From assembly GCF_020745735.1 (NCBI RefSeq), contig NC_083446.1, positions 5,518,001 to 5,582,000 on the forward strand: a DNA stretch of 64,000 nt. The letters run 5' to 3'. The DNA comes from Hemiscyllium ocellatum. Its lineage: Eukaryota. Positions 2,681 to 51,268 of this stretch are shown here, piece by piece; the stretch's first letter is position 1; every line of letters begins with the position of its first letter. A program made the translations under genes and the position numbers. Under the pieces are notes generated by a model. It was not told the origin of the DNA, made no database searches, and was given only the letters and a program-made list of their open reading frames with translations.

Positions 2681-3151
2681 CTGCTCTTTCTTTCCCCAGA
2701 GGTTTTCGTTCGCACACATTTGCTCATCCCTAATTGCCCTTGAACCAAGTGGCTGGCCACTGACCCCTGCCCTTTTAAAGGGGGCCTTGCCTCACATGAA
2801 GCCACACAGCATTCTGTGTGGAATGCTCTGCCCCAGAGGGCAGTGGAGGCCCAGTCTCTGGATTCATTTAAGAAAAAGAGTTGGATAGAGCTCTCAAAGA
2901 TAGTGGAATCCAGGGTTATGGAGATAGGGCAGGAAGCGGATACTGATTAGGAATGATCAGCCATGATCATATTGAATGGCGGTGCAGGCTGGATGGGCTG
3001 AATGGCCTACTCCTGCACCTATTGTCACACCCTGACCCCACTGCCCGGTGACTCCTGTAGGGAGCTTGCAGTCCATCGATGGCCTGGGACAAGGCTGGTA
3101 TGTTGACCCCAACCCATTCTCCACTCACCCCCCACCCCACTGTGCACGTAC

Positions 3152-3260
3152 CCCTCTTGATCCAGATGTTCTTGCGGAACTTGGTGGGCATGCTGGCGAG
3201 GAAGCGATCCCCCTGTGCCGTCTCCACCTCGTGGAGGTTATTCCCTGGCGAGCCCAGCAC
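3152..3260 (-). CDS. EIF1AD: EIF1AD coding exon 2 ([37 protein letters not shown]), 109 nt
   Basis: Highly conserved GNNLHEV...[15 protein letters not shown] motif; cag acceptor, G|gtacgt donor. Confidence 0.96.
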
Positions 3261-3754
3261 CTGTTTTTGGGGGTGGGGGTGGGGAGAGGAGAGAGAGAGA
3301 GAAACCAACAGAAACCTGAGAAGGGCGGAGGAGGCACTCCCGCAGCACGCTACAACAACAACAACTGGCAGAGGCCTGGCCCAAACCCTGCACTGTTGCC
3401 ACTTCAGGACCGAATGCAAGAACGCGGAATTTCAAAAGATCGTTCACAGTCGCTCCCTGTTTCTATCTCCACGGCAGCACATCCCCAATCATCTGGTGCT
3501 CTTGTTCCTGTTGCTAGACGTTGCTTTGTACGTTTGAAATTTTGGTATTCTTGCACGTGTCCTGATGGGCGCAAGGCGAAAAGTTTCAGTTGGATTCAGG
3601 TGCTGTTGTTTCTCGCCCTTGTTACATCCCTGCTCTGTCACATGGACTATTTTCTAACTAGGGAGGAAATTCTGAAATTTGAAGTACAAAGCAACTTGGG
3701 AGTCCTAGTCCAGGTTTCTCTTCAGGTAAACTCGCAGGTTGGGTTTGTAATTAG

Positions 3755-8266: not shown

Positions 8267-8389
8267 ATGACCACATCGCAGAAACACCGGGATTTTGTGG
8301 CTGAGCCCATGGGAGAGAAGTCGGTCCGGTGCCTAGCGGGAATCGGCGAGGTCCTTGGGAGACGGCTGGAGGATCAGGGATTCGACAGG
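8267..8389 (+). CDS. BANF1: BANF1 coding exon 1 ([41 protein letters not shown]), 123 nt
   Basis: Near-identical to the vertebrate BAF N-terminus including the HhH motif LAGIGEVLG; upstream tttcccag acceptor; AGG|gtaggt donor. Confidence 0.97.
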
Positions 8390-11215: not shown

Positions 11216-11814
11216 ATACGTACAGAAGAGATGTCCGTCCACCCCTTCTCCATTCGCGACCCACCCACCCCACTCCGTCCCCTCAGCAGGCTTGCCGTTT
11301 GGTAAGATTGTAGCTGTAAGTCACAGGAGGCAGCCCATTGGGCCCATCGAGCCTATTCTGCTGTTCCTCAGGCCCCCTTTCCTGGCCTTTCTCCCCATGA
11401 TTGTTTGATTCCCTGACTGATCAAGATTCTCTGTCTCTGCCTCAAATCTGTCTTTGCCCTCACAGCTCCCTGGCAAAGAGTTTCAAAGACTCTCGACCCC
11501 TCTAGAGAAGAAATTCCTTCTCACCTCTGTCCTCACTGGTCCTGGCCCCTCCCAGGAGGGGAAGCACCCTCTCAGTATTGATCCTTTAAGAGACCTGTAT
11601 GTTTCAGAGAGATCACCTCTCATCCTTCCATAATCCCAGCCAGTAAAGTCCCATTCCGTTTAGCCTTTGAGGGAGAGACGCTCCCTCTCCCCCCCAGGGA
11701 TTACTCTAGTGACCTCACTGTGGCCTGTCCACAACTTTACACCGATCCAGCTCATCACTGCTCTCTGGGGAAAGAAACTTCTGCAGGCTAACACCCCACG
11801 GGGCTGGGGATGGT

Positions 11815-12245
11815 CATAGGGATGGACAGCACGGAAACTGACCCTTCGGTCCAACTCCTCCATGCTGACCCGATATCCCAACCCAATCTAGTCCCACCTG
11901 CCAGCACCCGGCCCATATCCCTCAACCCTTCATATACCCATCCAGATGCCTCTTAAATGTTGTCATTGTACCAGCCTCCGCCACTTCCTCTGGCAGCTCA
12001 TTCCATACACGTACCATCCTCCTGTGTGGATAGAGTTGTCCCTTTTTAAATTTTCCCCCCCCCCCCCCCCCCCCCCCCAATCTTAAACCTATGTCTTCTA
12101 GTTGTGGACTCCACCCAGCACAGGGAAAAGACCATGGCTATTTATACTATTCACGCCCCCTCATGATTTTATAAACCTCTATAAGGTCACCCTTTGGCCT
12201 CCGACGCTCCAGGGAAAACCGCATCGGCCTATTCAGCCTGTCCAG
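11815..12245 (-). mobile_element. CR1 LINE 3' fragment (representative; similar pieces at about 8500-9230, 10340-10740, 16240-17500, 20105-21050, 35960-36420, 39110-39700, 55400-56185, 58645-59175, 62555-62965)
   Basis: Conserved CR1 3' coding remnants (LFSLERRRLRGDLIEVYKIM; FFTQRVV..WN.LP) and the shared 3' tail. Confidence 0.8.
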
Positions 12246-13913: not shown

Positions 13914-14060
13914 GCGTACGTGGTGCTGGGACAGTTCCTAGTCCTGAAGAAGAACGAGGAACTCTTCAAAGAATGGCTGAAGGACACATGCCAGGCTAAC
14001 TCCAAGCAGTGCATCGACTGTCACACCTGTCTGCGGGAATGGTGTGACGCCTTCCTGTAA
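13914..14060 (+). CDS. BANF1: BANF1 coding exon 2 ([48 protein letters not shown]); protein 89 aa
   Basis: Polypyrimidine tract plus ctgcag acceptor; conserved [13 protein letters not shown] and [10 protein letters not shown]; TAA stop. Confidence 0.97.
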
Positions 14061-16990: not shown

Positions 16991-18889
16991 TTGGGAGCCT
17001 CCTGTGAAGCGCTTCTGTGATGTTTCCTCCGGCATTTATAGTGGTTTGTCTCTGCCGCTTCCGGTTGTCAGTTGCTGTCCGCTGCAGCGGGTCCAGGTCG
17101 ATAGTTTGTTGACAGAATCTGTGGATGAGTACCATGCCTCTAGGAAGTGTGAGGTGCTGCACTTCGGGTAATCAAATGTTGAGGAAAAGGTTTTAAGTTA
17201 GTGGCAGCCTCCTACCACTGTTACAACAAAACTTGCCTCAAGCACCACCTTTGAACTTTCCCCTCTCACCTTAAATGCGTGTGCCCTGATTTTAGACATT
17301 TCAACTCTGGGTGAGGGGAGGAAAGAGGTGGAATTCTGACCGTCAGCCCTATCTATGCATCTCCTAATTTTATAGACCTCTATCAAGTCTGCCCTCAGCC
17401 TCCAGAGAAAACAACCTGAGTTTTTCTAGCTTCTCCTTATAGCTCATACCCTTTAATCCAAAGCCTCGTAATGTGACCAGAACTGACCACAATCCTCATA
17501 AGTGTGGCTGAATCAAAGAGGTAGTCGCAAAGTGCTCTAAGGATTCTCGACGAGCAAAGGGGTTGAAGAGTCAGCGGACAGGAGTAAAGAGTTCAGCCAC
17601 GATCTACGTTGAGGGGCAGAACGGCCGACATCTGTATGTTTCTGAGAATAGTCTGCAGCCAATTGAAAAGGCAAAAGTGAGGACTGCAGATGCTGGAGAT
17701 CAGAGTCCATGGCGCTGGAAAAGCACAGCAGGTCAGGCAGCATCCGGGGGTTTTGGAAGGTTCTGGAAAAAGGCCAGCACTGATCTGATGGGCTGCAATC
17801 TTCCACGCCCTGCCTGAGCCGAGGCCTCTGTCTCGCTCAGAGGCTGGTGCACCTTCAGAATTCGGTGCCCTGGTGGAGTTCAGTCCGCCTGAGACCACCA
17901 AGAAGGAGTTCAGTGTAGGACAGCCGGAATCTCGCTCAACGGGGTGGATAGCAGGCACCGAGGGGGCCAAATGGCCTACTTCTGCTGGTGGTCAGAATCG
18001 TACATCATGGAAACAGACCAAACCCGTCCAAATTTCCCAAACTAAATGAGTCCCGTTTGCCTGCATTTGGCCTCTATCCTTCCAAAGTGTTCATCTTTAT
18101 ACACCTGTCCAAATATCTTTTAAATGTTGTAACTCATCTATCTCTTCCTTTGGTTTTCCTGATTTACTTAATTAAATTCTTAATTCCAGATTTTTAAAAT
18201 TATTGTTGAATTCAAATTCCACCATCTGCCTTAGCAGGATTCGAACCTGGGTCCCCAGCATATTACCTGGGAGCAACAGCCCCGCGATAATATCACGAGG
18301 CTGTCTCCTGCCCCCTTTTTTTTGGGCCCCTCGTGATTTTATAAATCTCTACAAGAGTCGCCTCTCACTCCAGTGTCGGAAAAAATAGTCACAGCCTCTC
18401 CTCGTAACTCAAAACTCTCCAGTCCTGGCAACGTCCTGGTAAATCTCTTCCGTATCCTCTCCGGTTTAATGATATCGCTTCCTGGAGTGGGAATCTTGAA
18501 ATTGAATGGGGTAGGGAGCATGGAAATTGGTGGAGGGTAGAGTAACCATCCCCACCCCCAGTGACACACGCAAACCATCCAGGCAGGGAGAGTTAGGCCA
18601 GGAGGTCACAATGGACTGACACCATAAAGGTTGACCCCTCCTCCCCACCCCACCCCACCCCACCCCACTGTCCCCTCCCCTCCCACTCATTGTGACTGGG
18701 ACCTAGGCCTCAGTGAAGACAATAGCTCACGGACCCCAAGAGCCAGCGGTGACTGTGCGTATCACTGACACAGAAGGCTAACCTCCAACCTGTTGGTGTA
18801 GACACCACCCTCCCGCACTGGCGAGCTGAAATGGAGCTAAGGACGACCACTGTCCCCAACTTGAATGTGGATAAAGGTAGGTCAAACTC

Positions 18890-23000: not shown

Positions 23001-23645
23001 TGCTAGATTGTCCCATTATGTCCAGGGATGTGCAGGTTAGGGTGGATTGACCGTGCTAAATTGTCCCATAGTGTCCAGGGATGTGCAGGTTAGGGTGGAT
23101 TGGCCATGCTAAATTGACCCCTAATGCTCAGGGATGTGTAGGTTAGAGTGGATTGGCCGTGCTAAATTGTCCCATAGTGCCCAGGGATGTGTAGGTTAGG
23201 GTGGATTGTCCGTGCTAAATTGTCCCATAGTGCCCAGGGATGCGCAGGTTAGGGTGGATTGGCCGTACTAAATTGTCCCATAGTGCCCAGGGACGTGCAG
23301 GTTAGGATGGATTGGCCGTGCTAAATTGTCCCATAGTGTCCAGGGATGTGCAGTTTAGGATGGATTGGCCGTGCTAAATTGTCCCATAGTGCCCAGGGAT
23401 GTGCAGGTTAGGGTGGATTGGCCATGCTAAATTGTCCCATAGTGCCCAGGGATGTGCAGGTTAGGGTGGATTGGCTGTGCTAAATTGTCCCATAGTGCCC
23501 AGGGATGTGCAGGTTAGGGTGGATTGGCCGTGCTAAATTGTCCCATAGTGCCCTGGGATGTGCAGGTTAGGGTGGATTGGCTGTGCTAAATTGTCCCATA
23601 GTGCCCAGGGATGTGCAGGTTAGGGTGGGTTGGCTGTGCTAAATT

Positions 23646-25079
23646 CTGGATCAGAGTGGTGCTGGAAAAGCACAACAGGTCAGGCAGCATCTGAGGAGCA
23701 GGAAAATCTTGGACAGAAGCCTTTCATCAGGAATAAAGGCAGAGAGCTGGAAGCGCGGAGAGATAAGCTAGAGGAGGGTGGGGGTGGGGGTGGGGGTGGG
23801 GGTGGGGAGAGAGTAGCATAGAGTACAATAGGTGAGTGGGGGAGGGGATGAAGGTGATAGGTCAGGGAGGAGGGTGAGGGAAGGTAGCAAATAGTACAAT
23901 AGGTGAATGGGGGTGAGATGAAGGTGATAGGTCAGGGAGGAGGGTGGAGTGGATAGGTGGGAAGGAAGATAGGCAGGTAAGACAGGTCATGAGGAAGGCT
24001 GCAGCTGGGGTGAGGTGGAGGAAGGGGAAATGCGGAAACTGTTGAAGTCCACATTAGTGCCCTGGGGTTGAAGTGTTCCAATGTGGAAGATGAGGCGTTC
24101 TTCGTCCAGGCGTCGGGTGGTGAGGGAGCGGCGGTGAAGGAGGCCCAGGACCTCCATGTCCTCGGTAGAGTGGGAGGGAGAGTTGAAATGTTGGGCCACA
24201 GACCCATGGGGTTGTTTGGTGCAGGTCCACGCCCCCCTACAACCCACCCTCCTATCCTGGCACCTTCCCCTGTCACCGCAGGAACTGTAAAACCTGTGCC
24301 CACACCTCCTCCCTCACCTCCATCCAAGGCCCTAAAGGAGCATTCCACATCCATCAAAGTTTTACCTGCACATCCACTAATATCATTTATTGTATCCGTT
24401 GCTCCCGATTCGGTCTCCTCTACATTGGGGAGACTGGACGCCTCCTAGCTGAGTGCTTTAGGGAACATCTCCGGGACACCCGCACCAATCAACCACACCG
24501 CCCCGTGGCCCAACATTTCAACTCCCCCTCCCACTCTGCCAAGGACATGGAGGTCCTGGGCCTCCTTCACCGCCGCTCCCTCACTACCAGACGCCTGGAG
24601 GAAGAATACCTCATCTTCCGCCTCAGAACACTTCAATGTGGACTTCAACAGTTTCCTAATTTCCCCTTCCCCCACCTCACGTCAGCTTCAGCCTTCCAGC
24701 TCAGCCCCGCCCCATGACCTGTCCTACCTGCCTATCTTCCTTTCCACCTATCCACTCCACCCTCCTCTCTGACCTATCACCTTCATCCCCACCCCCATCC
24801 ACCCTTTGTACTCTTTGCTACCTTCCCCCACCCTCCTCCCTGACTTATTAACTTCTTCCCCTCCCCCACTCACCTATTGTACTCTTTGCTGCTTTCTCCC
24901 CACCCCCACCCACCACACATTTATCCCTCCACCCCTCCGGCTCTCTGCCTGCACTCCTGATGAAGGGCTTCTGCCCAAAACGTCGATTTTCCTGCTCCTT
25001 GGAAGCTGCCTGACCTGCTGTGATTTTCCAGCACCACACTAATCCAGGTTCTGGTTTCCAGCGTCTGCAGTCATTGTTC
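23646..25079. mobile_element. Penelope-like insertion with inverted halves (copy 1)
   Basis: GIY-YIG C-terminus on - (about 23990-24210) and on + (about 24330-24660); termini point outward; mutated hammerhead at about 24955-24990. Confidence 0.82.
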
Positions 25080-28000
25080 TGGCCGTGCTAAATTGTCCCA
25101 TAGTGCCCTGGGATGTGCAGGTTAGGGGGGATTGGCCGTGCTAAATTGTCCCATAGTGCCCAGGGATGTGCAGGTTAGGGTGGATTGGCCGTGCTAAATT
25201 GTCCCATAGTGCCCAGGGATGTGCAGGTTAGGGTGGATTGGCCGTGCTAAATTGTCCCATAGTGCCCAGGGATGTGCAGGTTAGGGTGGATTGGCCGTGC
25301 TAAATTGTCCCATAGTGCCCAGGGATGTGCAGGTTAGGGTGGATTGGCCGTGCTAAATTGTCCCATAGTGCCCAGGGATGTGCAGGTTAGGGTGGATTGG
25401 CCGTGCTAAATTGTCCCATAGTGCCCAGGGATGTGCAGGTTAGGGTGGATTGGCCGTGCTAAATTGTCCCATAGTGCCCAGGGATGTGCAGGTTAGGGTG
25501 GATTGGCCGTGCTAAATTGTCCCATAGTGCCCAGGGATGTGCAGGTTAGGGTGGATTGGCCGTGCTAAATTGTCCCATAGTGCCCAGGGATGTGCAGGTT
25601 AGGGTGGATTGGCCGTGCTAAATTGTCCCATAGTGCCCTGGGATGTGCAGGTTAAGGTGGATTGGCCGTGCTAAATTGTCCCATAGTGCCCAGGGATGTG
25701 CAGGTTAGGGTGGATTGGCCGTGCTAAATTGTCCCATAGTGCCCAGGGATGTGCAGGTTAGGGTGGATTGGCCGTGCTAAATTGTCCCATAGTGCCCAGG
25801 GATGTGCAGGTTAGGGTGGATTGACCGTGCTAAATTGTCCCATAGTGCCCAGGGATGTGCAGGTTAGGGTGGATTGGCCGTGCTAAATTGTCCCATAGTG
25901 CCCAGGGATGTGCAGGTTAGGGTGGATTGGCCGTGCTAAATTGTCCCATAGTGCCCAGGGATGTGCAGGTTAGGGTGGATTGGCCGTGCTAAATTGTCCC
26001 ATAGTGCCCAGGGATGTGTAGGTTAGAGTGGATTGCCTGTGCTAAATTGTCCCATAGTGCCCAGGGTGTGCAGGTTAGGGTGGATTGGCCGTGCTAAACT
26101 GTCCCATAGTGTCCAGGGATGTGCAGGTTAGGGTGGATTGGCCGTGCTAAATTGTCCCATAGTGCCCAGGGATGTGTAGGTTAGAATGGATTGGCCGTGC
26201 TAAATTGTCCCATAGTGTCCAGGGATGTGTAGGTTAGAGTGGATTGGCCGTGCTAAATTGTCCCATAGTGCCCAGGGATGTGCAGGTTAGGGTGGATTGG
26301 CCGTGCTAAATTGTCCCATAGTGTCCAGGGATGTGTAGGTTAGAGTGGATTGGCCGTGCTAAATTGTCCCATAGTGCCCAGGGATGTGTAGGTTAGAGTG
26401 GATTGGCCGTGCTAGATTGTCCCATAGTGTCCAGGGATGTGCAGGTTAGGGTGGATTGGCCGTGCTAAATTGACCCCTAATGCTCAGGGAATGTGCAGGT
26501 TAGGGTGGATTGGCCGTGCTAAATTGTCCCATAGTGTCAAGGGATGTGCAGGTTAGGGTGGATTGGCCATGCTAAATTGTCCCATAGTGCCCAGGGATGT
26601 GTAGGTTAGGATGGATTGGCCATGCTACATTGTCCCATAGTGTCAAGGGATGGATTGGCCATGCTACATTGTCCCATAGTGTCAAGGGATGTGCAGGTTA
26701 GGGTGGATTGGCCGTGCTAAATTGTCCCAAAGAATCCAGGGATGTGCAGGTTATGGTGGATTGGCCATGCTAAACTGTCCCATAATGTCCAGGGATGTGC
26801 AGGTTAGGGTGGATTGGCTGTGCTAAATTGTCCCATAGTGCCCAGGGATGTGCAGGTTAGGGTGGATTGGCCGTGCTAAATTGTCCCATAGTGCCCAGGG
26901 ATGTGCAGGTTAGGGTGGATTGGCCGTGCTAAATTGTCCCATAGTGCCCAGGGATGTGCAGGTTAGGGTGGATTGACCGTGCTAAATTGACCCCTAATGC
27001 CCAGGGATGTGCAGGTTAGGGTGGATTGGCCGTGCTAAATTGTCCCATAGTGCCCAGGGATGTGCAGGTTGGGGTGGATTGGCCGTGCTAAATTGTCCCA
27101 TAGTGCCCAGGGATGTGCAGGTTAGCGTGGATTGGCCGTGCTAAATTGTCCCATAGTGTCCAGGGATGTGCAGGTTAGGGTGGATTGGCCGTGCTAAATT
27201 GTCCCATAGTGCCCAGGGATGTGCAGATTAGGGTGGATTGGCCGTGCTAAATTGTCCCATAGTGCCCAGGGATGTGCAGGTTAGGGTGGATTGGCCGTGC
27301 TAAATTGTCCCATAGTGCCCAGGGATGTGCAGGTTAGGGTGGATTGGCCGTGCTAAATTGTCCCATAGTGCCCAGGGATGTGCAGGTTAGGGTGGATTGA
27401 CCGTGCTAAATTGTCCCATAGTGCCCAGGGATGTGCAGGTTAGGGTGGATTGGCCGTGCTAAATTGTCCCATAGTGCCCAGGGATGTGCAGGTTAGGGTG
27501 GATTGGCCGTGCTAAATTGTCCCATAGTGCCCAGGGATGTGCAGGTTAGGGTGGATTGGCCGTGCTAAATTGTCCCATAGTGCCCAGGGATGTGTAGGTT
27601 AGAGTGGATTGCCTGTGCTAAATTGTCCCATAGTGCCCAGGGTGTGCAGGTTAGGGTGGATTGGCCGTGCTAAACTGTCCCATAGTGTCCAGGGATGTGC
27701 AGGTTAGGGTGGATTGGCCGTGCTAAATTGTCCCATAGTGCCCAGGGATGTGTAGGTTAGAATGGATTGGCCGTGCTAAATTGTCCCATAGTGTCCAGGG
27801 ATGTGTAGGTTAGAGTGGATTGGCCGTGCTAAATTGTCCCATAGTGCCCAGGGATGTGCAGGTTAGGGTGGATTGGCCGTGCTAAATTGTCCCATAGTGT
27901 CCAGGGATGTGTAGGTTAGAGTGGATTGGCCGTGCTAAATTGTCCCATAGTGCCCAGGGATGTGTAGGTTAGAGTGGATTGGCCGTGCTAGATTGTCCCA

Positions 28001-29677
28001 TAGTGTCCAGGGATGTGCAGGTTAGGGTGGATTGGCCGTGCTAAATTGACCCCTAATGCTCAGGGATTGTGCAGGTTAGGGTGGATTGGCCGTGCTAAAT
28101 TGTCCCATAGTGTCAAGGGATGTGCAGGTTAGGGTGGATTGGCCATGCTAAATTGTCCCATAGTGCCCAGGGATGTGTAGGTTAGGATGGATTGGCCATG
28201 CTACATTGTCCCATAGTGTCAAGGGATGGATTGGCCATGCTACATTGTCCCATAGTGTCAAGGGATGTGCAGGTTAGGGTGGATTGGCCGTGCTAAATTG
28301 TCCCAAAGAATCCAGGGATGTGCAGGTTATGGTGGATTGGCCATGCTAAACTGTCCCATAATGTCCAGGGATGTGCAGGTTAGGGTGGATTGGCTGTGCT
28401 AAATTGTCCCATAGTGCCCAGGGATGTGCAGGTTAGGGTGGATTGGCCGTGCTAAATTGTCCCATAGTGCCCAGGGATGTGCAGGTTAGGGTGGATTGGC
28501 CGTGCTAAATTGTCCCATAGTGCCCAGGGATGTGCAGGTTAGGGTGGATTGACCGTGCTAAATTGACCCCTAATGCCCAGGGATGTGCAGGTTAGGGTGG
28601 ATTGGCCGTGCTAAATTGTCCCATAGTGCCCAGGGATGTGCAGGTTGGGGTGGATTGGCCGTGCTAAATTGTCCCATAGTGCCCAGGGATGTGCAGGTTA
28701 GCGTGGATTGGCCGTGCTAAATTGTCCCATAGTGTCCAGGGATGTGCAGGTTAGGGTGGATTGGCCGTGCTAAATTGTCCCATAGTGCCCAGGGATGTGC
28801 AGATTAGGGTGGATTGGCCGTGCTAAATTGTCCCATAGTGCCCAGGGATGTGCAGATTAGGGTGGATTGGCCGTGCTAAATTGCCTCATAGTGTCCAGGG
28901 ATGTGCAGGTTAGGGTGGATTGGCCGTGCTAAATTGTCCCATAGTGTCCAGGGATGTGCAGGTTAGGGTGGATTGGCCGTGCTAAATTGTCCCACAGTGC
29001 CCAGGGATGTGTAGGTTAGGGTGGATTGGCCGTGCTAAATTGTCCCATAGTGCCCAGGGATGTGCAGGTTAGGGTGGATTGGCTGTGCTAGATTGCCCCA
29101 TTGTGTCCAGGGATGTGCAGGTTAGGGTGGATTGACCGTGCTAAATTGTCCCATAGTGTCCAGGGATGTGCAGGTTAGGGTGGATTGGCCATGCTAAATT
29201 GACCCCTAATGCTCAGGGATGTGTAGTTTAGGGTGGGTTGGCTGTGCTAAATTGTCCCCTAATGCCCAGGGATGTGCAGGTTAGGGTGGATTGGCCGTGG
29301 TAAATTGTCCCATAGTGCCCAGGGATGTGCAGGTTAGGGTGGATTGGCCGTGGTAAATTGTCCCAAAGTGCCCAGGGATGTGCAGGTTAGGGTGGATTGA
29401 CCGTGCTAAATTGTCCCATAGTGTCCAGGGATGTGCAGGTTAGGGTGGATTGGCCATGCTAAATTGACCCCTAATGCTCAGTAATGTGTAGTTTAGGGTG
29501 GGTTGGCTGTGCTAAATTGTCCCCTAATGCCCAGGGATGTGCAGGTTAGGGTGGATTGGCCGTGGTAAATTGTCCCATAGTGCCCAGGGATGTGCAGGTT
29601 AGGGTGGATTGGCCGTGGTAAATTGTCCCAAAGTGCCCAGGGATGTGCAGGTTAGGGTGGGTTGGCTGTGCTAAATT

Positions 29678-31113: not shown

Positions 31114-32094
31114 TGGCCGTGCTAAATTGTCCCATAGTGCCCTGGGATGTGCAGGTTAAGGTGGATTGGCCATGCTAAATTGTCCCATGGTGCCCAGGGA
31201 TGTGCAGGTTAGGGTGGATTGGCCGTGCTAAATTGTCCCATAGTGCCCAGGGATGTGCAGGTTAGGGTGGATTGGCCGTGCTAAATTGTCCCATAGTGCC
31301 CAGGGATGTGCAGGTTAGGGTGGATTGGCCGTGCCAAATTGTCCCATAGTGTCAAGGGATGTGCAGGTTAGGGTGGATTGGCCATGCTAAATTGTCCCAT
31401 AGTGCCCAGGGATGTGTAGTTTAGGGTGGGTTGGCCGTGCTAAATTGTCCCATAGTGCCCAGGGATGTGTAGGTTAGGGTGGATTGGCCGTGCTAAATTG
31501 TCCCATAGTGCCCAGGGATGTGCAGGTTAGGATGGATTGGCCATGCTAAATTGTCCGATAGTGTCAAGGGATGTGCAGGTTAGGGTGGATTGGCCGTGCT
31601 AAATTGTTCCATAGTGCCCAGGGATGTGCAGGTTAGGATGGATGACTGTATTATATTAACCCATAGTGTCGTTTAGGAATAGGGTAGGGTGTGGGACATC
31701 CTTCAGAGTTTTGGTGTGGACTCAAGGGGCCGAATGGCCTGTTTCCACACTGTAGGGATTCTAACTGATCCATAATTCCTGTTTACTCTCTACCTTCTTT
31801 CTTTCTTGTAACTGGTAGAGCTACATCAGTTATCCTCTGCTCCATAAGAATTGTTCCAGGGTCAATACCATCTTGAAAGAAGCATTCCAGTATTTTGAGA
31901 GCCACTTCCTGAACTACTCTGGAACGACGATAATCAGGGATTTATGGACCCTTAACTCCATCAGTTTCCCATCCCACACACACTGCATTCACAGTCTCGG
32001 GACTGAGTTGACTTGCTCAACCTATGATGGTGCCCATAATTATAGCCGTCTCTTTAATACAATCCCTCCAGTGTGGGAGCAGCTAGCCCACCGC

Positions 32095-38912: not shown

Positions 38913-40076
38913 CCCGAGAGATTTAAACAATCTATCTTGTAAATCCTGCTATGGCAGGAGGGAGAATTCATATTCAGCTAATCCATCTAGAATGGAAAGC
39001 TACTCAATGATGGTAACCTTCAGACCATTACTGATTGCCATTAAAAAGCCCCTCTGATCTATTCGTGTCGTTTAAGGGAATCTGTCCTCCTTACCTGGTC
39101 TGGCCCGACACGATTGCCGGATATAAAAGGTTTGAGTTATAAAACAAAAGGCTGGTACTTTGTTCACTGCAGCGTAGTAGGTTGAGACGTGACCTTATAG
39201 AGGTTTATAAAATCATGAGGGGTATAGATATGGTGATGTGGAGATGCCGGTATTGGACTGAGGTATACAAAGTTAAAAATCACACAACAGCAGATTACAG
39301 TCGAACAAATAAAGCTGTTGGACTATAACCTGGTGTTGTGTGATTTGTAACGATGTCGTTATGATGTTTGGTATTCGTTGTTTACCTGGGGGAGAGGGGA
39401 TACCAAGACTAAGTAGCATAATTGTAATGTGAGAAGAGAGAGTTAAAAAAGACACTGGGGGCAATTTGTTTTTTTCACAGAGGGTGGTTGGTGGGTGGAA
39501 TGCACTTCCTGAGGAAGTGGCGGATGTGGGTTCAGCTACAACGTTTAAAACACACCTGTTTAAGTACGCGTTTGGGAAAGGTTTAGAGGGGGTAGGGGCC
39601 AGGAGCAGGCAGGTGTGGGAGGAGTTTAGTTTGGGATTATGGTTGGCACGGACTGGTTGGGCCGAAGGATCTGTTTCCGTGCTGCAGGACTTTGTAACTT
39701 TAATCAAAGGTCTGGGCAACCAAGGCATCTGTGCTAATCGCCCTCTTTACCACCCTGTGACACAAAATTCAACGAATTATGAGTCAGTGAGTCTTGGCAG
39801 GGGCGTTGGTCAGCAGGATTTAGGAGAATTGACGAAGGGGGTTGGAATTTTTGACACTGTGGGTTGTTGTGATGTGAAACAGGAGCTAAGTTTGGGGTCA
39901 GGGACTGGGAAAGGGATACCCTGGAGGCGTTGGTAACTGTGATGTGCTTCTGGGCACCAGGAATGAGAGGATCCGGAAGGTTAAAAAGTGACCGTACACA
40001 GCTACTAGCCTCTGCTGTCCCCTGAGTATGTGCACATCTCTCTCTCTCTGTTGCAGACCGCCCTGCCATCTGCCCA

Positions 40077-40205
40077 ATGGCCAACACGACCTCACAGAAG
40101 CACAAGAACTTTGTGGTGGAGCCCATGAAGGAGAAGTCTGTGAAAGAGCTGGCGGGAATCGGCCTAGTCCTGGGAGGACGGTTAGAGGAGAAAGGCTTCA
40201 CCAAG
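40077..40205 (+). CDS. BANF1-like paralogue coding exon 1 ([43 protein letters not shown]), 129 nt
   Basis: Translated by hand (missing from the ORF track); ttgcag acceptor at 40056, ATG in caATGG context, AAG|gtgagg donor at the same codon position as in BANF1. Confidence 0.93.
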
Positions 40206-40737
40206 GTGAGGGCTCAGTTACTCACCAAGTCCGACGCACTTGCACAGGGAGGATAGGGGCGAGAACGGAGGAGCTGTGTACACAGAAGCAGGACAAAGCT
40301 GTTCTGCCTCTTGAGCCTGCCTTGCCCCCCTCCCCCGAATGAGCGGGAGGTGAGCGTTAAAGTAGGAGGTGGAATTTACCACAGTGCCTCAGTGAGACTG
40401 CAGGTAAAACTACTGCTGCAGTCCCAACGTCCTCTGGGATATCAGCAGACTATTTGTGCGGGGGGGGGGTCAGGGGTTCCCTCTCACATCAGAGAGANNN
40501 NNNNNNNNNNNNNNNNNNNNNNNNNNNNNNNNNNNNNNNNNNNNNNNNNNNNNNNNNNNNNNNNNNNNNNNNNNNNNNNNNNNNNNNNNNNNNNNNNNNN
40601 NNNNNNNNNNNNNNNNNNNNNNNNNNAGAGACTGTGTGTGAGAGAGAGAGACTGTGTGAGAGAGAGAGAGAGAGAGACTGAGAGAGAGACAGTGTGTGAG
40701 AGAGAGTAAGAGACAGTGTGTGAGAGAGAGAGAAAGA

Positions 40738-40773
<36 letters not shown>

Positions 40774-41854
40774 GCACGCGAGAGGGAATAAGAGAGCAGT
40801 GTATATGTGTGAGAGAGAATGCCAGTGTGAGTGAGCCAGAGTGAGAATGAGCATGAGAGAGAGAGAGACTGACGATCTCTAACCTCAAGTAATGCTCTTG
40901 GCCAACAAAGCATCAAATCCCACCAGGGGCAGATGACAAAACTTGAATTCTGTACAAATCTGAAATTTCTTTAATAATCAAAAAAGCTCTGAGCCAATTG
41001 AGTTGAATCTTTCTCAACCAATTCCAGCCCAATAGGCTTGGGGTCCGCGCCTCATACCACCATCAGTGGGAACTGCACCGACTGCATTTCACAAGAGACT
41101 GGAACTGAAGTTGTCGCCTTAATTAATGTGGGCGTGCACAGTACATTGGGTTGTGGTCAGCCAACTCAGACTCAGGCCCTGAAACTGAGGAGACTGTGAA
41201 TCCCCTGGTGAAGGTTTCATTTTCAATGACAGGACTTGGATTTTCAAAATCAAAAGCCTCCTCTGAACGCCGACTATCGATTCCCCATGGCGAAGGTTCC
41301 ATCTGGTTCACTCTGAGGGAGGGTAAACCGCCCCCTTTACCCAGTCTGGGCCTACAGCGACTCCAGACCCTGACGGCGATGTGGTTGGAAGCTGGAGTGC
41401 CCTCTGGAGCGCCAATTGGGCAGGGGGCAATGGATGCCACCTTGCCCGTGATACCCACACACTATGCAAATGAAAATACAGGGAGGCAATAGCCTAGCGG
41501 TGTTATCGCTGGATTGTTATCCCAGAGAGCTGAGTGATGCTTTGGCATTATGGCAGGCGATGGAATCTGAATGCAATACAAATCTGGAATTGAGAGTCTA
41601 ATGATGACCATTGTTAACTTTTGGGAAAAACCCATTTGGTTCACTAATGTCCTTTAGGGAAGGAATCTACCATCCTTAACTGGTCTGGGCCTACACGTGA
41701 CTCCTGACCCACAGTAACTCTTACTGCCCTCCGGGAAATGAGGGATGGGGCGACGCTCTCATTCCGTGAATGAATTTTTTTTGTTTAAATCAACGCTGAC
41801 CCGCGACAGGATGCCATGTGTTTTAACCCCTGTTCTTTTCCTACACTTGTTTAG

Positions 41855-42001
41855 GCTAAAGATGTGTTGGGTCAGTTTCTGCTTCTGAAACAAGACAAAG
41901 TGGCCTTCAAGTCCTGGATGAGGCAAGTGTGCTTCGCGGGGAACAGGCAATCAGAAGACTGTTATCGCTGTCTCAGGGAGTGGTGTGATGCTTTCCTGTG
42001 A
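41855..42001 (+). CDS. BANF1-like paralogue coding exon 2 ([48 protein letters not shown]); protein 91 aa
   Basis: Polypyrimidine tract plus tttag acceptor; 147 nt, the same length as BANF1 exon 2; no frameshift or premature stop; TGA at 41999-42001. Confidence 0.93.
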
Positions 42002-42150
42002 ACCTTCCTCTGCCCCTTCCCCTCCAGCTCCTGCGTAGATGACAGTAATGATCACCTCAAAGAAACCTTAATTGCTATTTATTGATTGTTCACAGCCCCA
42101 GGTCACCGGGGCTTTTCCAGATTTTATACGGTTTTGAAAACTGATTTTTT

Positions 42151-42156
42151 AATAAA
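42151..42156 (+). terminator. Polyadenylation signal of the BANF1-like paralogue
   Basis: AATAAA 150 nt after the stop, preceded by a T-rich stretch. Confidence 0.65.
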
Positions 42157-42261: not shown

Positions 42262-42872
42262 AATCGCTGCGGTGTGGAAACCAGGCCCTAACAGGTCCAC
42301 ACCAACCCTCCGAAGAGTAACCAACCCAGACCCATTCCCCTACCGTACAATCCTATATTTACCTCTCACGAGTGCACTCAACACGATGGGACAATTTAGC
42401 ACGGCCAATCCACCCTAACCTGCACATCCCTGGGCACTATGGGACAATTTAGCACGGCCAATCCACCCTAACCTGCACATCCCTGGGCACTATGGGACAA
42501 TTTAGCACGACCAATCCACCCTAACCTGCACATCCCTGGGCACTATGGGACAATTTAGCACGGCCAATCCACCCTAACCTGCACATCCCTGGGCACTATG
42601 GGACAATTTAGCACGGCCAATCCACCCTAACCTGCACATCCCTGGGCACTATGGGACAATTTAGCACAGCCAATCCACCCTAACCTGCACATCCCTGTGC
42701 ATTGTGGGACAATTTAGCATGGCCAATCCACCCAAACCTGCACATCTTTGGATTGTGGGAGGAAACTCGTGCAGAATTGTGTAAACCCTACACAGACCTC
42801 TCACCAGAGGCTGGAATTGAAGCTGGGTCCCTAGCACTGCGAGGCAGCAGTGCTAACCACTGAGCCACCGTG
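42262..42872 (-). mobile_element. V-SINE with 6-7 copies of the 53-bp internal unit
   Basis: Tail at 42262-42385, tandem units at 42385-42750, head to 42872. Confidence 0.85.
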
Positions 42873-44570: not shown

Positions 44571-44651
44571 TCAAAGTACACATTGCATGTTTGATACCTG
44601 CCTCTCAGGAACCCATGGCCGATCCCAGATTTCGAATGTGCAGACCTGCAT
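44571..44651 (-). CDS. CST6: Cystatin (E/M-like) exon 3 (MQVCTFEIWDRPWVPERQVSNMQCVL*)
   Basis: ttctttcag acceptor (a second in-frame cag lies 6 nt downstream); PW second-hairpin motif and the second disulfide Cys pair; TGA at 44573-44571. Confidence 0.85.
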   Translation of the reverse strand: MQVCTFEIWDRPWVPERQVSNMQCVL

Positions 44652-44888
44652 CTGAAAGAATAAAAATCAGCGCTGGTAACTAAGCCCACAGTTACTCAAT
44701 ACGTGGGACCACCCAATACCAATCATGCCCATTCCACCTGTACTTCCAAATGTACACGATTACCCGGGGAGAGTCGTGCTTCTCCACCCTCGGCTCACAG
44801 CCCTCAATGTTGTGACACTTAGGGCCGTTTGTCTGAGGAGGGTTGGGAGGGTTCTCTCCGATCTCCTGTCACTGCAGATTTCTCTCAC

Positions 44889-45011
44889 CTTGCTAGCCTG
44901 CAGCCCAGGCTGGAAGCTGCACCTCTCAAGGTCGACGTTCCGTTCTGCCGATTTCCTGCAGGTGGTCTTGCCCAGTTGCATCTTCACCTGGTACATCATC
45001 CCCTGCACCAC
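44889..45011 (-). CDS. CST6: Cystatin (E/M-like) exon 2 (VVQGMMYQVKMQLGKTTCRKSAERNVDLERCSFQPGLQASK)
   Basis: Completes the QxVxG motif (Q|VVQG) across a phase-0 intron, as in type-2 cystatins; TTCRK...VDLxxC resembles the cystatin E/M insertion region; ttgcag acceptor and AAG|gtgaga donor. Confidence 0.88.
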
Positions 45012-45489
45012 CTGCAAAGACAACATCCCAACTTGCCGTCAGTTTGGTGCTGAAGACACAGCAAGCAATCTCGGTTACATTAGATTCCCTACAGTGTGGA
45101 AACGGGTCCTTCGGTCCAACCAGTCCACACTGACCCTCCAAAGAAGCCTCCTTACCTTTAAAGGTCCGTTACCTACCTCCCATTCTAGAGCAATACACTG
45201 ATCCAATAGAGCCCTGATTAAATTTACAGCAACTCAGGCTTCAAAGCCAGGCAGAGGCTGTCCTCTCTGGTGTTAAACTTCCTGTTTCTAGGTCTCCCTG
45301 GGTTCTCCTAACGTCCCCCTGACGACACCCCCAGTCTCCCAGCCACCAACACTCCCCACCCCAAAAAACGCGCCCTCTACCACTCCACAGTGTGCCCCAC
45401 CCCCTCCACTCTCCCCTACCTCCAGAGTGATCCCCCACCCCCACCTTCTGTCCACCCCTCTCTTCCCCTCCACCCCATCGCCCCCAGCA

Positions 45490-48400
45490 CCCCAGTCCGC
45501 ACCAATCGCCTCCCCCCAGTCTGCACGAACCTCACACCCCCTAGTCTGCACCACCCCACCTCTCCCCTCCCCCAGTCTGCACCACCCCCTCCCCTTCCCC
45601 CCCAGTCTGCACCACCCCCTCCCCTCCCCCAGTCTGCACCAACAACCCCTCCCCCAGTCTGCACCAACCCCCACCCCTTCCCCCCCCAGTCTGCACCACC
45701 CCCTCCCCGCCCCCAGTCTGCACCAACAACCCCCAGTCTGCACCACCCCCTCCCCTCCCCCAGTCTGCACCACCCCCTCCCCTCCCCTCGTCTGCACCAA
45801 CATCCCCCAGTCTGCACCACCCCCTCCCCTCCCCCAGTCTGCACCACCCCCTCCCCTCACCCCCCCAGTCTGCACCAACATCCCCCAGTCTGCACCACCC
45901 CCTCCCCTAGTCTGCACCAACAACCTCCAGTCTGCACCACCCCCTCCCCTCCCCTAGTCTGCACCTCCCCTCCCCTCGTCTGCACCTCCCCTCCCCCAGT
46001 CTGCACCACCCCCTCCCCTTCCCCCCCCAGTCTGCACCAACATCCCCCAGTCTGCACCAGCCCCTCCCCTTCCCCCCATCTGCACCACCCCCTCTCCGTG
46101 CCACCCCCCCAGTCTGCACCACCCCCTCCCCTCCACCCCCCAGTCTGCACCACCCCCTCCCCTGCCCCAGTCTGCACCACCCCCTCCCCCAATTTACACC
46201 TCCCCTTCCCCTCCCCAGTCTGCACCTCCCCTCCCCTTCCCCCTCCCGTCCCCCCCCAGTCTGCACCACCCCCACCCCTTCCCCCCTCCCCAGTCTGCAC
46301 CTCCCCTCCCCTTCCCCCCCACCCCACAGTCTGCACCTCCCCTCCCCTTCCCCCTCCCCAGTCTGCACCACCCCCTCCCCTTCCCCCCCCAGTCTGCACC
46401 CTCCCCTCCCCTCAGTCTGCACCATCCCCTCCCCTTCCCCCCTCCCCAGTCTGCACCTCCCCTCCCCCCCCAGTCTGCACCCTCCCCTTCCCCCCCCCAG
46501 TCTGCACCCTCCCCTTCCCCCCCCCAGTCTGCACCTCCCCTCCCCCCCCAGTCTGCACCCTCCCCTTCCCCCCCCCAGTCTGCACCCTCCCCTTCCCCCC
46601 CCCAGTCTGCACCCTCCCCTTCCCCCCCCCAGTCTGCACCTCCCCTCCCCTCCCCCCAGTCTGCACCTCCCCTCCCCTCCCCCCAGTCTGCACCTCCCCT
46701 CCCCTCCCCCCAGTCTGCACCTCCCCTCCCCTCCCCCCAGTCTGCACCTCCCCTCCCCTCCCCCCAGTCTGCACCACCCCCTCCCCCCAGTCTGCACCTC
46801 CCCTTCCCCCCAGTCTGCACCTCCCCTCCCCTTCCCCCCCAAGTCTGCACCTCCCCTCCCCTCCCCCCCCAACTCTGCACCTCCCCTTCCCCCCCCAGTC
46901 TGCACCTCCCCTCCCCTTCCCCTCCCCAGTCTGCACCCTCCCCTCAGTCTGCACCACCCCCTCCCCTCCCCCCCAGTCTGCACCTCCCCCCCCAACTCTG
47001 CACCTCCCCTTCCCCCCCCAACTCTGCACCTCCCCTTCCCCCCCCAGTCTGCACCTCCCCTCCCCTTCCCCTCCCCAGTCTGCACCCTCCCCTCAGTCTG
47101 CACCACCCCCTCCCCTCCCCCCCAGTCTGCACCTCCCCTCCCCTCAGTCTGCACCACCCCCTCCCCTCCCCCCCAAGTCTGCACCTCCCCTCCCCTTCCC
47201 CCCCCAGTCTGCACCTCCCCTCCCCTTCCCCCCCCAGTCTGCACCTCCCCTCCCCTCCCCCCCCCAGTCTGCACCTCCCCTCCCCTCCCCCCCCAGTCTG
47301 CACCTCCCCTCCCCCCTCCCCCCCGTCTGCACCCTCCCCTCCCCCCCCCCCCCGTCTGCACCCTCCCCTCCCCCCCACCAAGTCTGCACCTCCCCTCCCC
47401 TTCCCCCCCCAGTCTGCACCTCCCCTCCCCTTCCCCCCCCAACTCTGCACCTCCCCTCCCCTTCCCCCACCAACTCTGCACCTCCCCTCCCCTCCCAACT
47501 CTGCACCTCCCCTCCCCCCCCAGTCTGCACCCTCCCCTCCCCTCCCCACCCCAAGTCTGCACCTCCCCTCCCCTTCCCCCCCCAACTCTGCACCTCCCCT
47601 CCCCTTCCCCCCCCAACTCTGCACCTCCCCTCCCCTTCCCCCCCAACTCTGCACCTCCCCTCCCCTTCCCCTCCCCAGTCTGCACCCTCCCCTCAGTCTG
47701 CACCACCCCCTCCCCTCCCCTTCCCCCCCCAGTCTGCACCTCCCCTCCCCCCCGTCTGCACCCTCCCCTCCCCCCCCCAAGTCTGCACCTCCCCTCCCCT
47801 TCCCCCCCCAGTCTGCACCTCCCCTCCCCTTCCCCCAACTCTGCACCTCCCCTCCCCTCCCCCCCCCAACTCTGCACCTCCCCTCCCCTCCCCCCCCCAA
47901 CTCTGCACCTCCCCTCCCCTCCCAACTCTGCACCTCCCCTCCCCCCCCAGTCTGCACCCTCCCCTCCCCACCCCAAGTCTGCACCTCCCCTCCCCTTCCC
48001 CCCCCAACTCTGCACCTCCCCTCCCCTTCCCCCCCCAACTCTGCACCTCCCCTCCCCTTCCCCCCCCAACTCTGCACCTCCCCTCCCCTTCCCCCCCCAA
48101 CTCTGCACCTCCCCTCCCCTTCCCCTTCCCCTCCCCAGTCTGCACCCTCCCCTCAGTCTGCACCACCCCCTCCCCTCCCCTTCCCCCCCCAGTCTGCACC
48201 TCCCCTCCCCCCTCCCCCCCGTCTGCACCCTCCCCTCCCCCCCCCCAAGTCTGCACCTCCCCTCCCCTTCCCCCCCCAGTCTGCACCTCCCCTCCCCTTC
48301 CCCCCCCAGTCTGCACCTCCCCTCCCCTTCCCCCAACTCTGCACCTCCCCTCCCCTTCCCCCCCCAACTCTGCACCTCCCCTCCCCTTCCCCCCCCAACT

Positions 48401-51058
48401 CTGCACCTCCCCTCCCCTTCCCCCCCCAACTCTGCACCTCCCCTCCCCTCCCAACTCTGCACCTCCCCTCCCCCCCCAGTCTGCACCCTCCCCTCCCCTC
48501 CCAGTCTGCACCCTCCCCTCCCCTCCCCACCCCAAGTCTGCACCTCCCCTCCCCTTCCCCCCCCAACTCTGCACCTCCCCTTCCCCCCCCAACTCTGCAC
48601 CTCCCCTTCCCCTCCCCAGTCTGCACCCTCCCCTCAGTCTGCACCACCCCCTCCCCTCCCCTCCCCCTCAGTCTGCACCACCCCCTCCCCTCCCCTCCCC
48701 CCCAGTCTGCACCATCCCCTTCCCCCCACCCNNNNNNNNNNNNNNNNNNNNNNNNNNNNNNNNNNNNNNNNNNNNNNNNNNNNNNNNNNNNNNNNNNNNN
48801 NNNNNNNNNNNNNNNNNNNNNNNNNNNNNNNNNNNNNNNNNNNNNNNNNNNNNNNNNNNNNNNNNNNNNNNNNNNNNNNNNNNNNCCCCCCCACCCCCAG
48901 TCTGCACCTCCCCTCCCCCCCACCCCAGTCTGCACCTCCCCTCCCCTTCCCCCCACCCCCAGTCTGCACCTCCCCTCCCCTTCCCCCCACCCCCAGTCTG
49001 CACCTCCCCTCCCCTTCCCCCCACCCCCAGTCTGCACCTCCCCTCCCCTCTCCCCTCCCAGTCTGCACCTCCCCTCCCCTTCCCCCCACCCCCAGTCTGC
49101 ACCTCCCCTCCCCTCCCCTCGTCTGCACCAACATCCCCCAGTCTGCACCACCCCCTCCCCTCCCCCAGTCTGCACCAACAACCCGTCTGCACCACCCCCT
49201 CCCCTCCCCTCGTCTGCACCAACATCCCCCAGTCTGCACCACCCCCTCCCCTCCCCCAGTCTGCACCACCCCCTCCCCTCCCCCCCCCAGTCTGCACCAC
49301 CACCTCCCCTCACCCCCCCAGTCTGCACCAACATCCCCCAGTCTGCACCACCCCCTCCCCTAGTCTGCACCAACAACCTCCAGTCTGCACCACCCCCTCC
49401 CCTCCCCTAGTCTGCACCTCCCCTCCCCTCGTCTGCACCTCCCCTCCCCCAGTCTGCACCAGCCCCTCCCCTTCCCCCCATCTGCACCACCCCCTCTCCG
49501 TGCCACCCCCCCAGTCTGCACCACCCCCTCCCCTCCACCCCCCAGTCTGCACCACCCCCTCCCCTGCCCCAGTCTGCACCTCCCCTCCCCTCCCCTTCCC
49601 CCCCCACAGTCTGCACCTCCCCTCCCCTTCCCCCTCCCCAGTCTGCACCACCCCCTCCCCTTCCCCCCCAGTCTGCACCCTCCCCTCCCCTCAGTCTGCA
49701 CCATCCCCTCCCCAGTCTGCACCTCCCCTCCCCCCCTCAGTCTGCACCCTCCCCTTCCCCCCCCCAGTCTGCACCTCCCCTCCCCTCCCCCCAGTCTGCA
49801 CCTCCCCTCCCCTCCCCCCAGTCTGCACCACCCCCCCCCCCCCCAGTCTGCACCACCCCCTCCCCCCAGTCTGCACCTCCCCTTCCCCCCAGTCTGCACC
49901 TCCCCTCCCCTCCCCCCCCCCAAGTCTGCACCTCCCCTCCCCTCCCCAACTCTGCACCTCCCCTCCCCTTCCCCTCCCCAGTCTGCACCCTCCCCTCAGT
50001 CTGCACCACCCCCTCCCCTCCCCCCCAGTCTGCACCTCCCCTCAGTCTGCACCACCCCCTCCCCTCCCCTCAGTCTGCACCACCCCCTCCCCTCCCCCCC
50101 AAGTCTGCACCTCCCCTCCCCTCCCCCCAGTCTGCACCTCCCCTCCCCTCCCCCCCCCCAAGTCTGCACCTCCCCTCCCCTCCCCAACTCTGCACCTCCC
50201 CTCCCCTTCCCCTCCCCAGTCTGCACCCTCCCCTCAGTCTGCACCACCCCCTCCCCTCCCCCCCAGTCTGCACCTCCCCTCCCCTCCCCTCAGTCTGCAC
50301 CACCCCCTCCCCTCCCCTCAGTCTGCACCACCCCCTCCCCTCCCCCCCAAGTCTGCACCTCCCCTCCCCTCCCCTCAGTCTGCACCTCCCCCTCCCCTCC
50401 CCCCCAAGTCTGCACCTCCCCTCCCCTCCCCCCCAGTCTGCACCTCCCCTCCCCTCCCCCCCAGTCTGCACCTCCCCTCCCCTTCCCCCCCAAGTCTGCA
50501 CCTCCCCTCCCCTTCCCCCCCCAGTCTGCACCTCCCCTCCCCCCTCCCCCCCCCCCCAGTCTGCACCCTCCCCTCCCCCCCCCTTCCCCCCCAGTCTGCA
50601 CCTCCCCTTCCCCTCCCCTTCCCCCCCAACTCTGCACCTCCCCTCCCCTTCCCCCCCCAACTCTGCACCTCCCCTCCCCTCCCCCCCCCAACTCTGCACC
50701 TCCCCTCCCCTCCCAACTCTGCACCTCCCCTCCCCTCCCAGTCTGCACCCTCCCCTCCCCTTCCCCCCCCAACTCTGCACCTCCCCTTCCCCCCCCAGTC
50801 TGCACCTCCCCTCCCCTTCCCCTCCCCAGTCTGCACCTCCCCTCCCCTTCCCCTCCCCAGTCTGCACCCTCCCCTCAGTCTGCACCACCCCCTCCCCTCC
50901 CCTCTCCCCCAGTCTGCACCTCCCCTCCCCTCCCCTCCCCCCCAGTCTGCACCTTCCCCCCACCCCCAGTCTGCACCTCCCCTCCCCTCCCCCCCAGTCT
51001 GCACCCTCCCCTCCCCTCCCCTCCCCCCCAGTCTGCACCCTCCCCTCCCCTCCCCCAC
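45490..51058. repeat. C-rich (+) / G-rich (-) tandem array, unit about 20-35 bp around CAGTCTGCACC(TCCCC)n, filling cystatin intron 1
   Basis: Directly visible; interrupted by an N-gap at 48732-48885. Confidence 0.95.
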
Positions 51059-51268
51059 CTGAGATTTGACCGAGATGACGTGGGCGATCTTGCTCAGGTG
51101 GATGGCGTTGCTCCCGCGGTTATAACTCTCGATGGCGAAGCGGGCCGCCTCCTGCGCCTCCGCCGAGTGGATGTCCATATGGGAGAGTCCGCCGGGCATG
51201 GGGCTGCCCAGGCCGGAGAACAGCAGCAGCACCAACACGGGGGCAAACAACATCCCAGCCGCCGCCAT
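51059..51268 (-). CDS. CST6: Cystatin (E/M-like) exon 1: signal peptide plus N-terminal half (MAAAGMLFAPVLVLLLFSGLGSPMPGGLSHMDIHSAEAQEAARFAIESYNRGSNAIHLSKIAHVISVKSQ); protein 137 aa
   Basis: Hydrophobic signal peptide, conserved PGG glycine, SYNxGSN loop; CAG|gtgggg donor. Cystatin family call is firm; the CST6 label rests on motif similarity plus adjacency to BANF1. Confidence 0.88.

Follow-up and report, generated by a model that had tools for sequence, protein, structure and literature searches.

BAF is an essential and nearly invariant protein, and to date it is mainly through engineered or disease mutants that its roles in DNA bridging, LEM recruitment and lamin binding have been told apart. 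The residues of BAF that contact LEM domains, DNA and lamin have been described (PMC6212729, PMC6459885, PMC2173821), and the LEM site has been reported to span both BAF monomers (PMC6212729). Residues 51, 53 and 54 were described as essential for emerin binding (PMC2173821), and L58R, which abolishes emerin recruitment, serves as the standard LEM-blind mutant (PMC10769424). According to the cited reports, human G16R binds dsDNA approximately sevenfold tighter and lamin threefold weaker via an R16-L89' bridge (PMC10099716), human R75E shows decreased DNA and emerin binding and increased histone binding (PMC6459885, PMC2173821), and S4 of BAF is located at linker DNA (PMC11811190). Mammalian BAF-L (BANF2) has been described as testis-rich, as heterodimerising and binding DNA weakly (PMC13443024, PMC8877947), and as a proposed regulator of BAF (PMC13443024), and cichlid banf2w as a candidate sex-determining copy (PMC8268354, PMC9917144). 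In view of these precedents, divergent BAF paralogues are already a known kind.

The BAF paralogue analysed here lies in a 64,000-nucleotide stretch of the Hemiscyllium ocellatum genome (assembly GCF_020745735.1, contig NC_083446.1, positions 5,518,001 to 5,582,000 of the forward strand), referred to below as the window. Judged by its conservation, the paralogue is an intact and functional duplicate in cartilaginous fishes and is older than first thought, being common to sharks, rays and chimaera. The features of the window are the following.

3150..3263, reverse strand: exon with an eIF-1a domain, probably EIF1AD, head-to-head with BANF1 (synteny marker)
8267..8389, forward strand: first coding exon of the canonical BANF1, the upstream tandem partner (Pfam; 71/88 to human BAF)
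13914..14060, forward strand: second coding exon of the canonical BANF1 (Pfam)
18831..18876, forward strand: first coding exon of the paralogue, 15 codons plus 1 nt, in-frame product identical to record P0013
18877..40056, forward strand: intron 1 of the paralogue, 21.2 kb, GT..AG, holding a 53-bp tandem array at 21225-29677
40057..40205, forward strand: second coding exon of the paralogue, with the rest of the N-terminal extension, an internal ATG at 40077, the TTSQKH phospho-sites, K16 and the HhH motif
40206..41854, forward strand: intron 2 of the paralogue, 1649 nt, GT..AG, at the position of the BANF1 intron, spliced out in one contig of run X3
41855..42001, forward strand: third coding exon of the paralogue, with the dimer helix carrying K43/D44, the remodelled helix 4 (Q54, A58, S61), the C-terminus and TGA
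42151..42156, forward strand: candidate polyadenylation signal AATAAA (from sequence)
44571..51268, reverse strand: three-exon cystatin gene (synteny marker)

The original prediction described a two-exon gene, and both of its exons are present and open. Joining 40077-40205 to 41855-42001 yields an uninterrupted BAF reading frame of 91 aa with GT..AG splice sites and an intron at the same codon boundary as in BANF1, and both exons score above the Pfam SAM_BAF cut-off (PF02961; 58.2 and 62.5 bits, cut-off 25 bits). Recomputation returned the values given earlier, namely 55/89 identity to the neighbouring BANF1 and a net charge (K+R-D-E) of +5 versus -1, as well as the AATAAA. The exon count, however, had to be amended, as a third coding exon was located upstream by matching the N-termini of longer chondrichthyan proteins to the window. 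When exon 3 was used as a query against longer proteins, 5/5 candidates matched, all of them chondrichthyan and four with a length of 112-113 aa. The paralogue is thus encoded by three coding exons (113 aa), with an ATG at 18831, a GT donor after 18876 and an in-frame acceptor at 40057; its first coding exon lies 21 kb upstream of the remaining coding exons and 4.8 kb beyond the BANF1 stop. The three-exon product is letter-identical to record P0013 (Chiloscyllium plagiosum / Hemiscylliidae), and the paralogue family has a further record (P0018) of the 91-aa form that starts with the ATG of 40077. A CpG scan singled out no promoter near exon 1 of the paralogue.

The additional exon provides most of an N-terminal extension of approximately 24 residues, of which residues 1-21 are predicted to be disordered (pLDDT <50, AlphaFold2). 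The extension begins with M-[ED]-[LF]-R in the records of 11 species, including Callorhinchus, and 9/11 of these records do not contain the internal Met (40077), so that the extension would be needed there to translate helix 1. In the remaining paralogue records the protein start is placed at M15, at the internal Met or within sequence derived from an intron. The protein starts all rest on automatic gene models. The spliced contig of run X3 starts at 40055, which fits a branch between intron and an exon ending in AG, as a hint only. Since BANF1 likewise has an acceptor just before its ATG, the extension likely arose through translation of an ancestral 5' untranslated exon.

The gene order in the window is eIF-1a-domain gene (reverse), BANF1 (forward), paralogue (forward) and cystatin gene (reverse). 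This agrees with the human order EIF1AD-BANF1-CST6, in which CST6 comes after BANF1, the eIF-1a-domain gene being probably EIF1AD; by synteny, the neighbour at 8267-14060 is BANF1. A search of the genome for BAF yielded 10 matches. These comprise the paralogue and its neighbour, a duplicate of the neighbour on contig C1184, two disabled copies and, on C14, an intact gene. The paralogue and BANF1 are both on contig C189, where a cofilin match is also found. On the small contig C1184, the second copy of the window BANF1 (L003/L009) has an identical last exon and a one-base loss in the first coding exon, and is probably an assembly duplicate. BANF1 and the paralogue share a scaffold in four other species, Pristis, Leucoraja (64-kb contig), Hypanus and Mobula, the tandem order being read from shared scaffold lengths and adjacent accession numbers.

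The intact BAF gene on C14 (L006/L001, G000:C14:88063975-88066611) is separate from this locus. Tetrapod BANF2 has been placed within an RRBP1-SNX5-OVOL2-POLR3F block (PMC3380836), and in H. ocellatum C14 carries POLR3F (84.66 Mb) and the stronger of two RRBP1/kinectin-type matches (85.18 Mb), 2.9-3.4 Mb from the BAF gene at 88.06 Mb. One of two DTD matches is also on C14; SNX5 was not found on C14 in a Vps5 search, OVOL2 was not located and cofilin/destrin had no match on C14. The paralogue is outside this block, on C189 beside BANF1. The C14 gene is therefore the probable shark orthologue of BANF2 and, with the neighbour being BANF1, the paralogue is the third BAF of chondrichthyans, in which the vertebrate BAF inventory would grow from two genes to three. 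With 62/88 identity to the window BANF1, the C14 protein has stayed near canonical BAF and, unlike amniote BAF-L, has kept L58 and an acidic residue 61. The disabled copies on C54 (12.36 Mb, L008) and C60 (53.35 Mb, L010) were rejected as copies of the paralogue, as they resemble the C14 gene; the C60 copy seems to read through the position of the intron, pointing to a retrocopy and to expression of the C14 gene in the germline.

In the free tree, teleost and lizard BANF2-type proteins join the C14 clade (SH-aLRT 94) and the paralogue falls outside; the BANF2 side of the trees consists of teleost, lizard and C14-type sequences. The AU tests reject none of four placements (all p>0.4), among them the paralogue joined to shark BANF1 (p=0.65), to the BANF2/C14 clade (p=0.60) and to lizard BANF2 (p=0.41), and constrained searches beat the free search twice (88 columns). 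As no origin is rejected, a tandem duplication of BANF1 rests on position and not on the tree. The view that the paralogue is closer to BANF1 than to BANF2 draws its support from the locus beside BANF1 and from the separate BANF2 candidate on C14, and the paralogue is probably not a BANF2 orthologue.

Cluster look-ups returned orthologue records of the paralogue in 17 chondrichthyan species, including sharks, rays, a skate and the chimaera Callorhinchus. The 17 rows form a 100/100 clade with a stem of 0.83 changes per site and short internal branches (62-row tree), and shark-to-skate identity is 84/88 for the paralogue and 80/88 for BANF1. The duplicate had been proposed to be lineage-specific and functional; function is well supported by this conservation, and the lineage is widened to sharks, rays and chimaera. 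No orthologue outside chondrichthyans was found among the 120 of 864 profile matches listed, in which scores fall from 195-236 bits for paralogues to ≤162 beyond, save two long records (191 and 224 aa), and, of 149 divergent BAF representatives from the best 150 of 1278, 0 exceeded 3/10 signature states. Bony fish may still have a diverged orthologue. The 40205/41855 junction, proposed earlier as a check on the gene, was found in one of four runs (X3, contigs from a related organism, presumed RNA) as a 1649-nt GT..AG joint, counter to the reading as a young pseudogene. The spliced contig extends beyond the poly(A) signal, which together with the joint argues against a retrocopy, and 7/7 of the coding differences listed in X3 are silent, against 22% expected for random changes. 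Runs X1, X2 and X6 listed no spliced joint, solely pieces reaching into introns. The dN/dS between paralogue and BANF1 (0.31/2.3, NG86) is saturated and was not used. In Callorhinchus, there are three distinct paralogue proteins (P0004, P0021, P0005), one of them fast-evolving, and the matches listed include no canonical BANF1 record, which may merely reflect clustering. The paralogue is automatically annotated as 'BAF A-like/B-like' in RefSeq and UniRef. No paper on a chondrichthyan BAF paralogue was found in the literature searched (coverage excluding subscription journals), and a search of the Atlas returned generic BAF clusters only; the variant is real and apparently undescribed.

Residue states were compared (human numbering) across 17 paralogue rows, 24 C14-type rows and 132 other BAFs, the last being mostly top matches to the paralogue profile together with cluster members; the set excludes five paralogue records that were redundant and three matches that were long or divergent. 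Fourteen positions are clade-specific (states in ≤2% of other BAFs), and 11/14 fall within residues 40-72, a clustering with Fisher p=0.0016 for a segment chosen post hoc. The net charge of the core is +4/+5 in 15/15 complete paralogue rows versus a maximum of +3 in 131 others. A basic residue 16 is present in all 17 paralogue rows (Lys in 15/17) and in 0/132 other close BAFs, and the same distribution, 17/17 and 0/132, applies to D44 and to Q54. The canonical LEM-valley states (L/M58, acidic 61, K54) and G16 are absent from the window paralogue, which has A58, S61, Q54 and K16; A58 and S61 each occur in 0/132 other close BAFs, and the acidic residues of helix 4 decrease from 4-5 to 1-2. D44, Q54, an aromatic residue 68, K/R16 and K/R43 are fixed across sharks, rays and chimaera. 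The rim positions 57, 58 and 61 are variable across orthologues, position 58 being A/S/V/T and position 61 S/C/N/T, and the latter two appear to vary as if released from constraint. In two lizard BANF2-type proteins (P0253, P0267), A58 is likewise combined with a neutralised helix 4, which may represent convergent loss of the LEM rim.

The substitutions previously assigned to functionally mapped positions are not all informative. V51L and R75E were rejected as diagnostic states, since they are also present in ordinary BAFs: L51 occurs in 21/132 other BAFs and position 75 is highly variable (R in 35/132, E in 4/132, I75 in the neighbouring shark BANF1). Strong changes beyond the earlier list are K54Q, loss of D40, G68F/Y and replacement of E28 by hydrophobic residues. 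Singly, K43, D44 or A58 is also present among the 149 divergent BAF representatives.

The core DNA contacts K6, G25, G27, V29 and L30 are all kept in the window protein, as are S4 and Q5, and over the 17 rows V29 alone varies (one Ile). N70, conserved in 129/132 others, is changed in the paralogue, as are A71 and R75. Lamin contacts are kept at 6/7 positions, residue 12 being V/L in elasmobranchs and G/S in chimaera. Six of the eight crystallographic LEM contacts (K37, F39, Q48, L51, L52, W62) are kept or conservative, with F39, Q48, L52 and W62 kept and 37 and 51 conservative, and L58 and E61 are lost; K53 is kept. The T-T-S phospho-sites are retained. A remodelled LEM face is thereby supported; of the proposed uncoupling from LEM proteins or lamins, the lamin part is weaker than implied.

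The AlphaFold2 monomer has the BAF fold (pLDDT 83.8) and matches 1CI4 with TM 0.95 and E 6e-10, which, together with the 5/5 DNA contacts and the T-T-S motif, bears out the earlier statement that fold core and phospho-sites are retained. A homodimer predicted without a supplied alignment reached 0.78, compared with 0.01 for the best control, a value that may reflect the predictor's prior exposure to the solved human dimer; the runs showed 100% contact agreement and a pLDDT of at least 93. In calibration, the homodimer mark was given to 21/30 solved microbial pairs and 0/23 singles, and among eukaryotes to 17/29 pairs (animals 7/16; 1/7 without an older solved relative) and 0/30 singles. The predicted dimer contacts include 16-89', 43-89', 53-44' and 51-44', which would place the fixed new residues at the seam. 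In the two-fold dimer model, K16 and K43 touch the C-terminal L89 of the partner and D44 touches its K53; K16 would accordingly reproduce the human G16R contact (16-89'), and D44 is predicted to face the emerin-essential K53.

Compared with BANF1/BAF (PF02961; PDB 1CI4, 6GHD), the paralogue has the same fold, intron position, T-T-S phospho-sites, HhH DNA contacts and most lamin contacts, a predicted G47-centred dimer and 56/88 identity to human BAF. It differs in the extra coding exon, the N-terminal extension, the net charge of +5, the K16/K43/D44 seam, Q54, the small residue 58, the non-acidic 61, the aromatic 68 and G70. Amniote BANF2/BAF-L and teleost banf2 are likewise divergent vertebrate BAF paralogues, and the lizard BANF2-type proteins have A58 with a neutral 61; BANF2 is nevertheless found at another locus (the probable shark orthologue being on C14), and the paralogue is 41/86 identical to Pogona BAF-L. 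BAF-L binds DNA weakly, whereas the DNA-binding motif is fully kept in the paralogue, and the profile predicted from its residues is opposite to that of mammalian BAF-L. With human variants G16R, A12T and L58R the paralogue shares a basic residue 16, a bulky residue 12 (in elasmobranchs) and a changed residue 58; its changes are, however, combined and fixed class-wide, Lys is commoner than Arg at position 16, and residue 58 is small, not Arg.

On balance, we lean slightly towards the paralogue being a phospho-regulated dimeric DNA bridger with poor LEM recruitment and modest lamin A/C binding, as its residues and model suggest. A BAF-like fold and dimer are predicted for the protein, and it would likely bridge DNA; as in human G16R, helix 1 would be clamped, here by K/R16, with DNA affinity kept or raised. 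D44 would tie up K53, which is needed for emerin binding, and the LEM valley would be left empty by the disappearance of L58, K54 and the acidic rim of helix 4; emerin-type LEM proteins are likely bound weakly or not at all. Lamin A/C binding would be modestly weakened by the bulky V/L12 in elasmobranchs and, with the T-T-S motif retained, phosphorylation by VRK would still serve as an off-switch. Such a protein would act as a chromatin or cytoplasmic DNA cross-bridger recruiting little nuclear membrane. Against loss of LEM binding, the published loss-of-binding mutants (L58R, K54E, V51E) are harsher than the natural changes. As R75E lowers DNA binding of human BAF and N70 and A71 are changed, the DNA affinity of the paralogue could also be lower, not higher; the G16R measurement concerns Arg in the human background, and 15/17 paralogue rows have Lys.

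A more specific extension, which we regard as speculative and rather doubtful, is that the paralogue represents a natural separation-of-function BAF kept since before the shark-chimaera split, a high-affinity DNA clamp in which the residue change behind human G16R neuronopathy has become fixed, with a K16/K43/D44-locked dimer that is blind to the envelope. Its task would be to compact chromatin, for example in sperm or erythrocyte nuclei, or to trap foreign DNA in the cytosol, a profile inverse to that of mammalian BAF-L. With an intact DNA face and a remodelled LEM face, a paralogue kept throughout a vertebrate class would be a ready-made tool for envelope-free BAF function and would show how a basic residue at position 16 is tolerated.

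A different, BAF-L-like role would be that of a tuner, in which heterodimers with BANF1 spoil the composite LEM or lamin site of the mixed dimer; this is unlikely, and it can coexist with the DNA-bridger reading. The seam residues K16, K43 and D44 touch K53 and L89, both of which are present in BANF1, so a mixed dimer would look chemically compatible. The LEM site is shared between monomers (PMC6212729), mammalian BAF-L heterodimerises with BAF (PMC13443024), and lizard BANF2-type proteins have similar A58/N61 changes, although the full DNA-binding face of the paralogue contrasts with the weak DNA binding reported for BAF-L (PMC13443024). The fixation of D44, Q54, aromatic 68, K/R16 and K/R43 across the clade points to new constraint, which could also reflect a surface re-tooled so that the altered helix 3-4 face, together with the N-terminal extension, engages a new partner, for instance a histone, a chondrichthyan protein or a single LEM subtype. 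The conserved extension start in 11 records, including Callorhinchus, and the increased histone binding reported for human R75E (PMC6459885) are in keeping with such a partner. We consider it distinctly unlikely, as dimer-seam contacts in the model account for the fixed residues and rim positions 57, 58 and 61 differ among orthologues.

That most contacts are kept (lamin 6/7, LEM 6/8), and that K43, D44 and A58 are seen singly in divergent BAFs, would suit an ordinary BAF split off by expression pattern, with normal LEM and lamin binding and substitutions amounting to tolerated drift. This is very improbable, since stasis after a long stem (0.83 changes per site) and the clustering of changes at near-invariant positions in helices 3-4 fit a functional shift. 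That the gene is a pseudogene, or a BANF2-lineage member that has moved, is scarcely credible, the pseudogene part being largely refuted by intact orthologue records in 17 species with 84/88 shark-to-skate identity and by the silent differences (7/7) in run X3. The splice joint in just 1/4 runs and the AU tests, which allow grouping with BANF2/C14, lizard BANF2 or shark BANF1, speak for it; the separate intact C14 BAF near POLR3F/RRBP1-type markers, which groups with teleost and lizard BANF2-type proteins, and the scaffold common to BANF1 and the paralogue in four other species speak against it. The DNA-bridging, LEM-poor reading remains the one we favour.

Two further observations concern the surroundings of the gene. 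The cystatin gene has a signal-peptide-like N-terminus, QVVQG spanning the exon 1/2 junction and PW in exon 3, and its intron 1 contains a C-rich tandem array of approximately 5.5 kb with 27-31-bp units that gives rise to long spurious proline-rich ORFs. The 53-bp array at 21225-29677 within intron 1 of the paralogue comprises approximately 160 copies, and its unit recurs at 2511-2646, 31114-31643 and 42382-42746.
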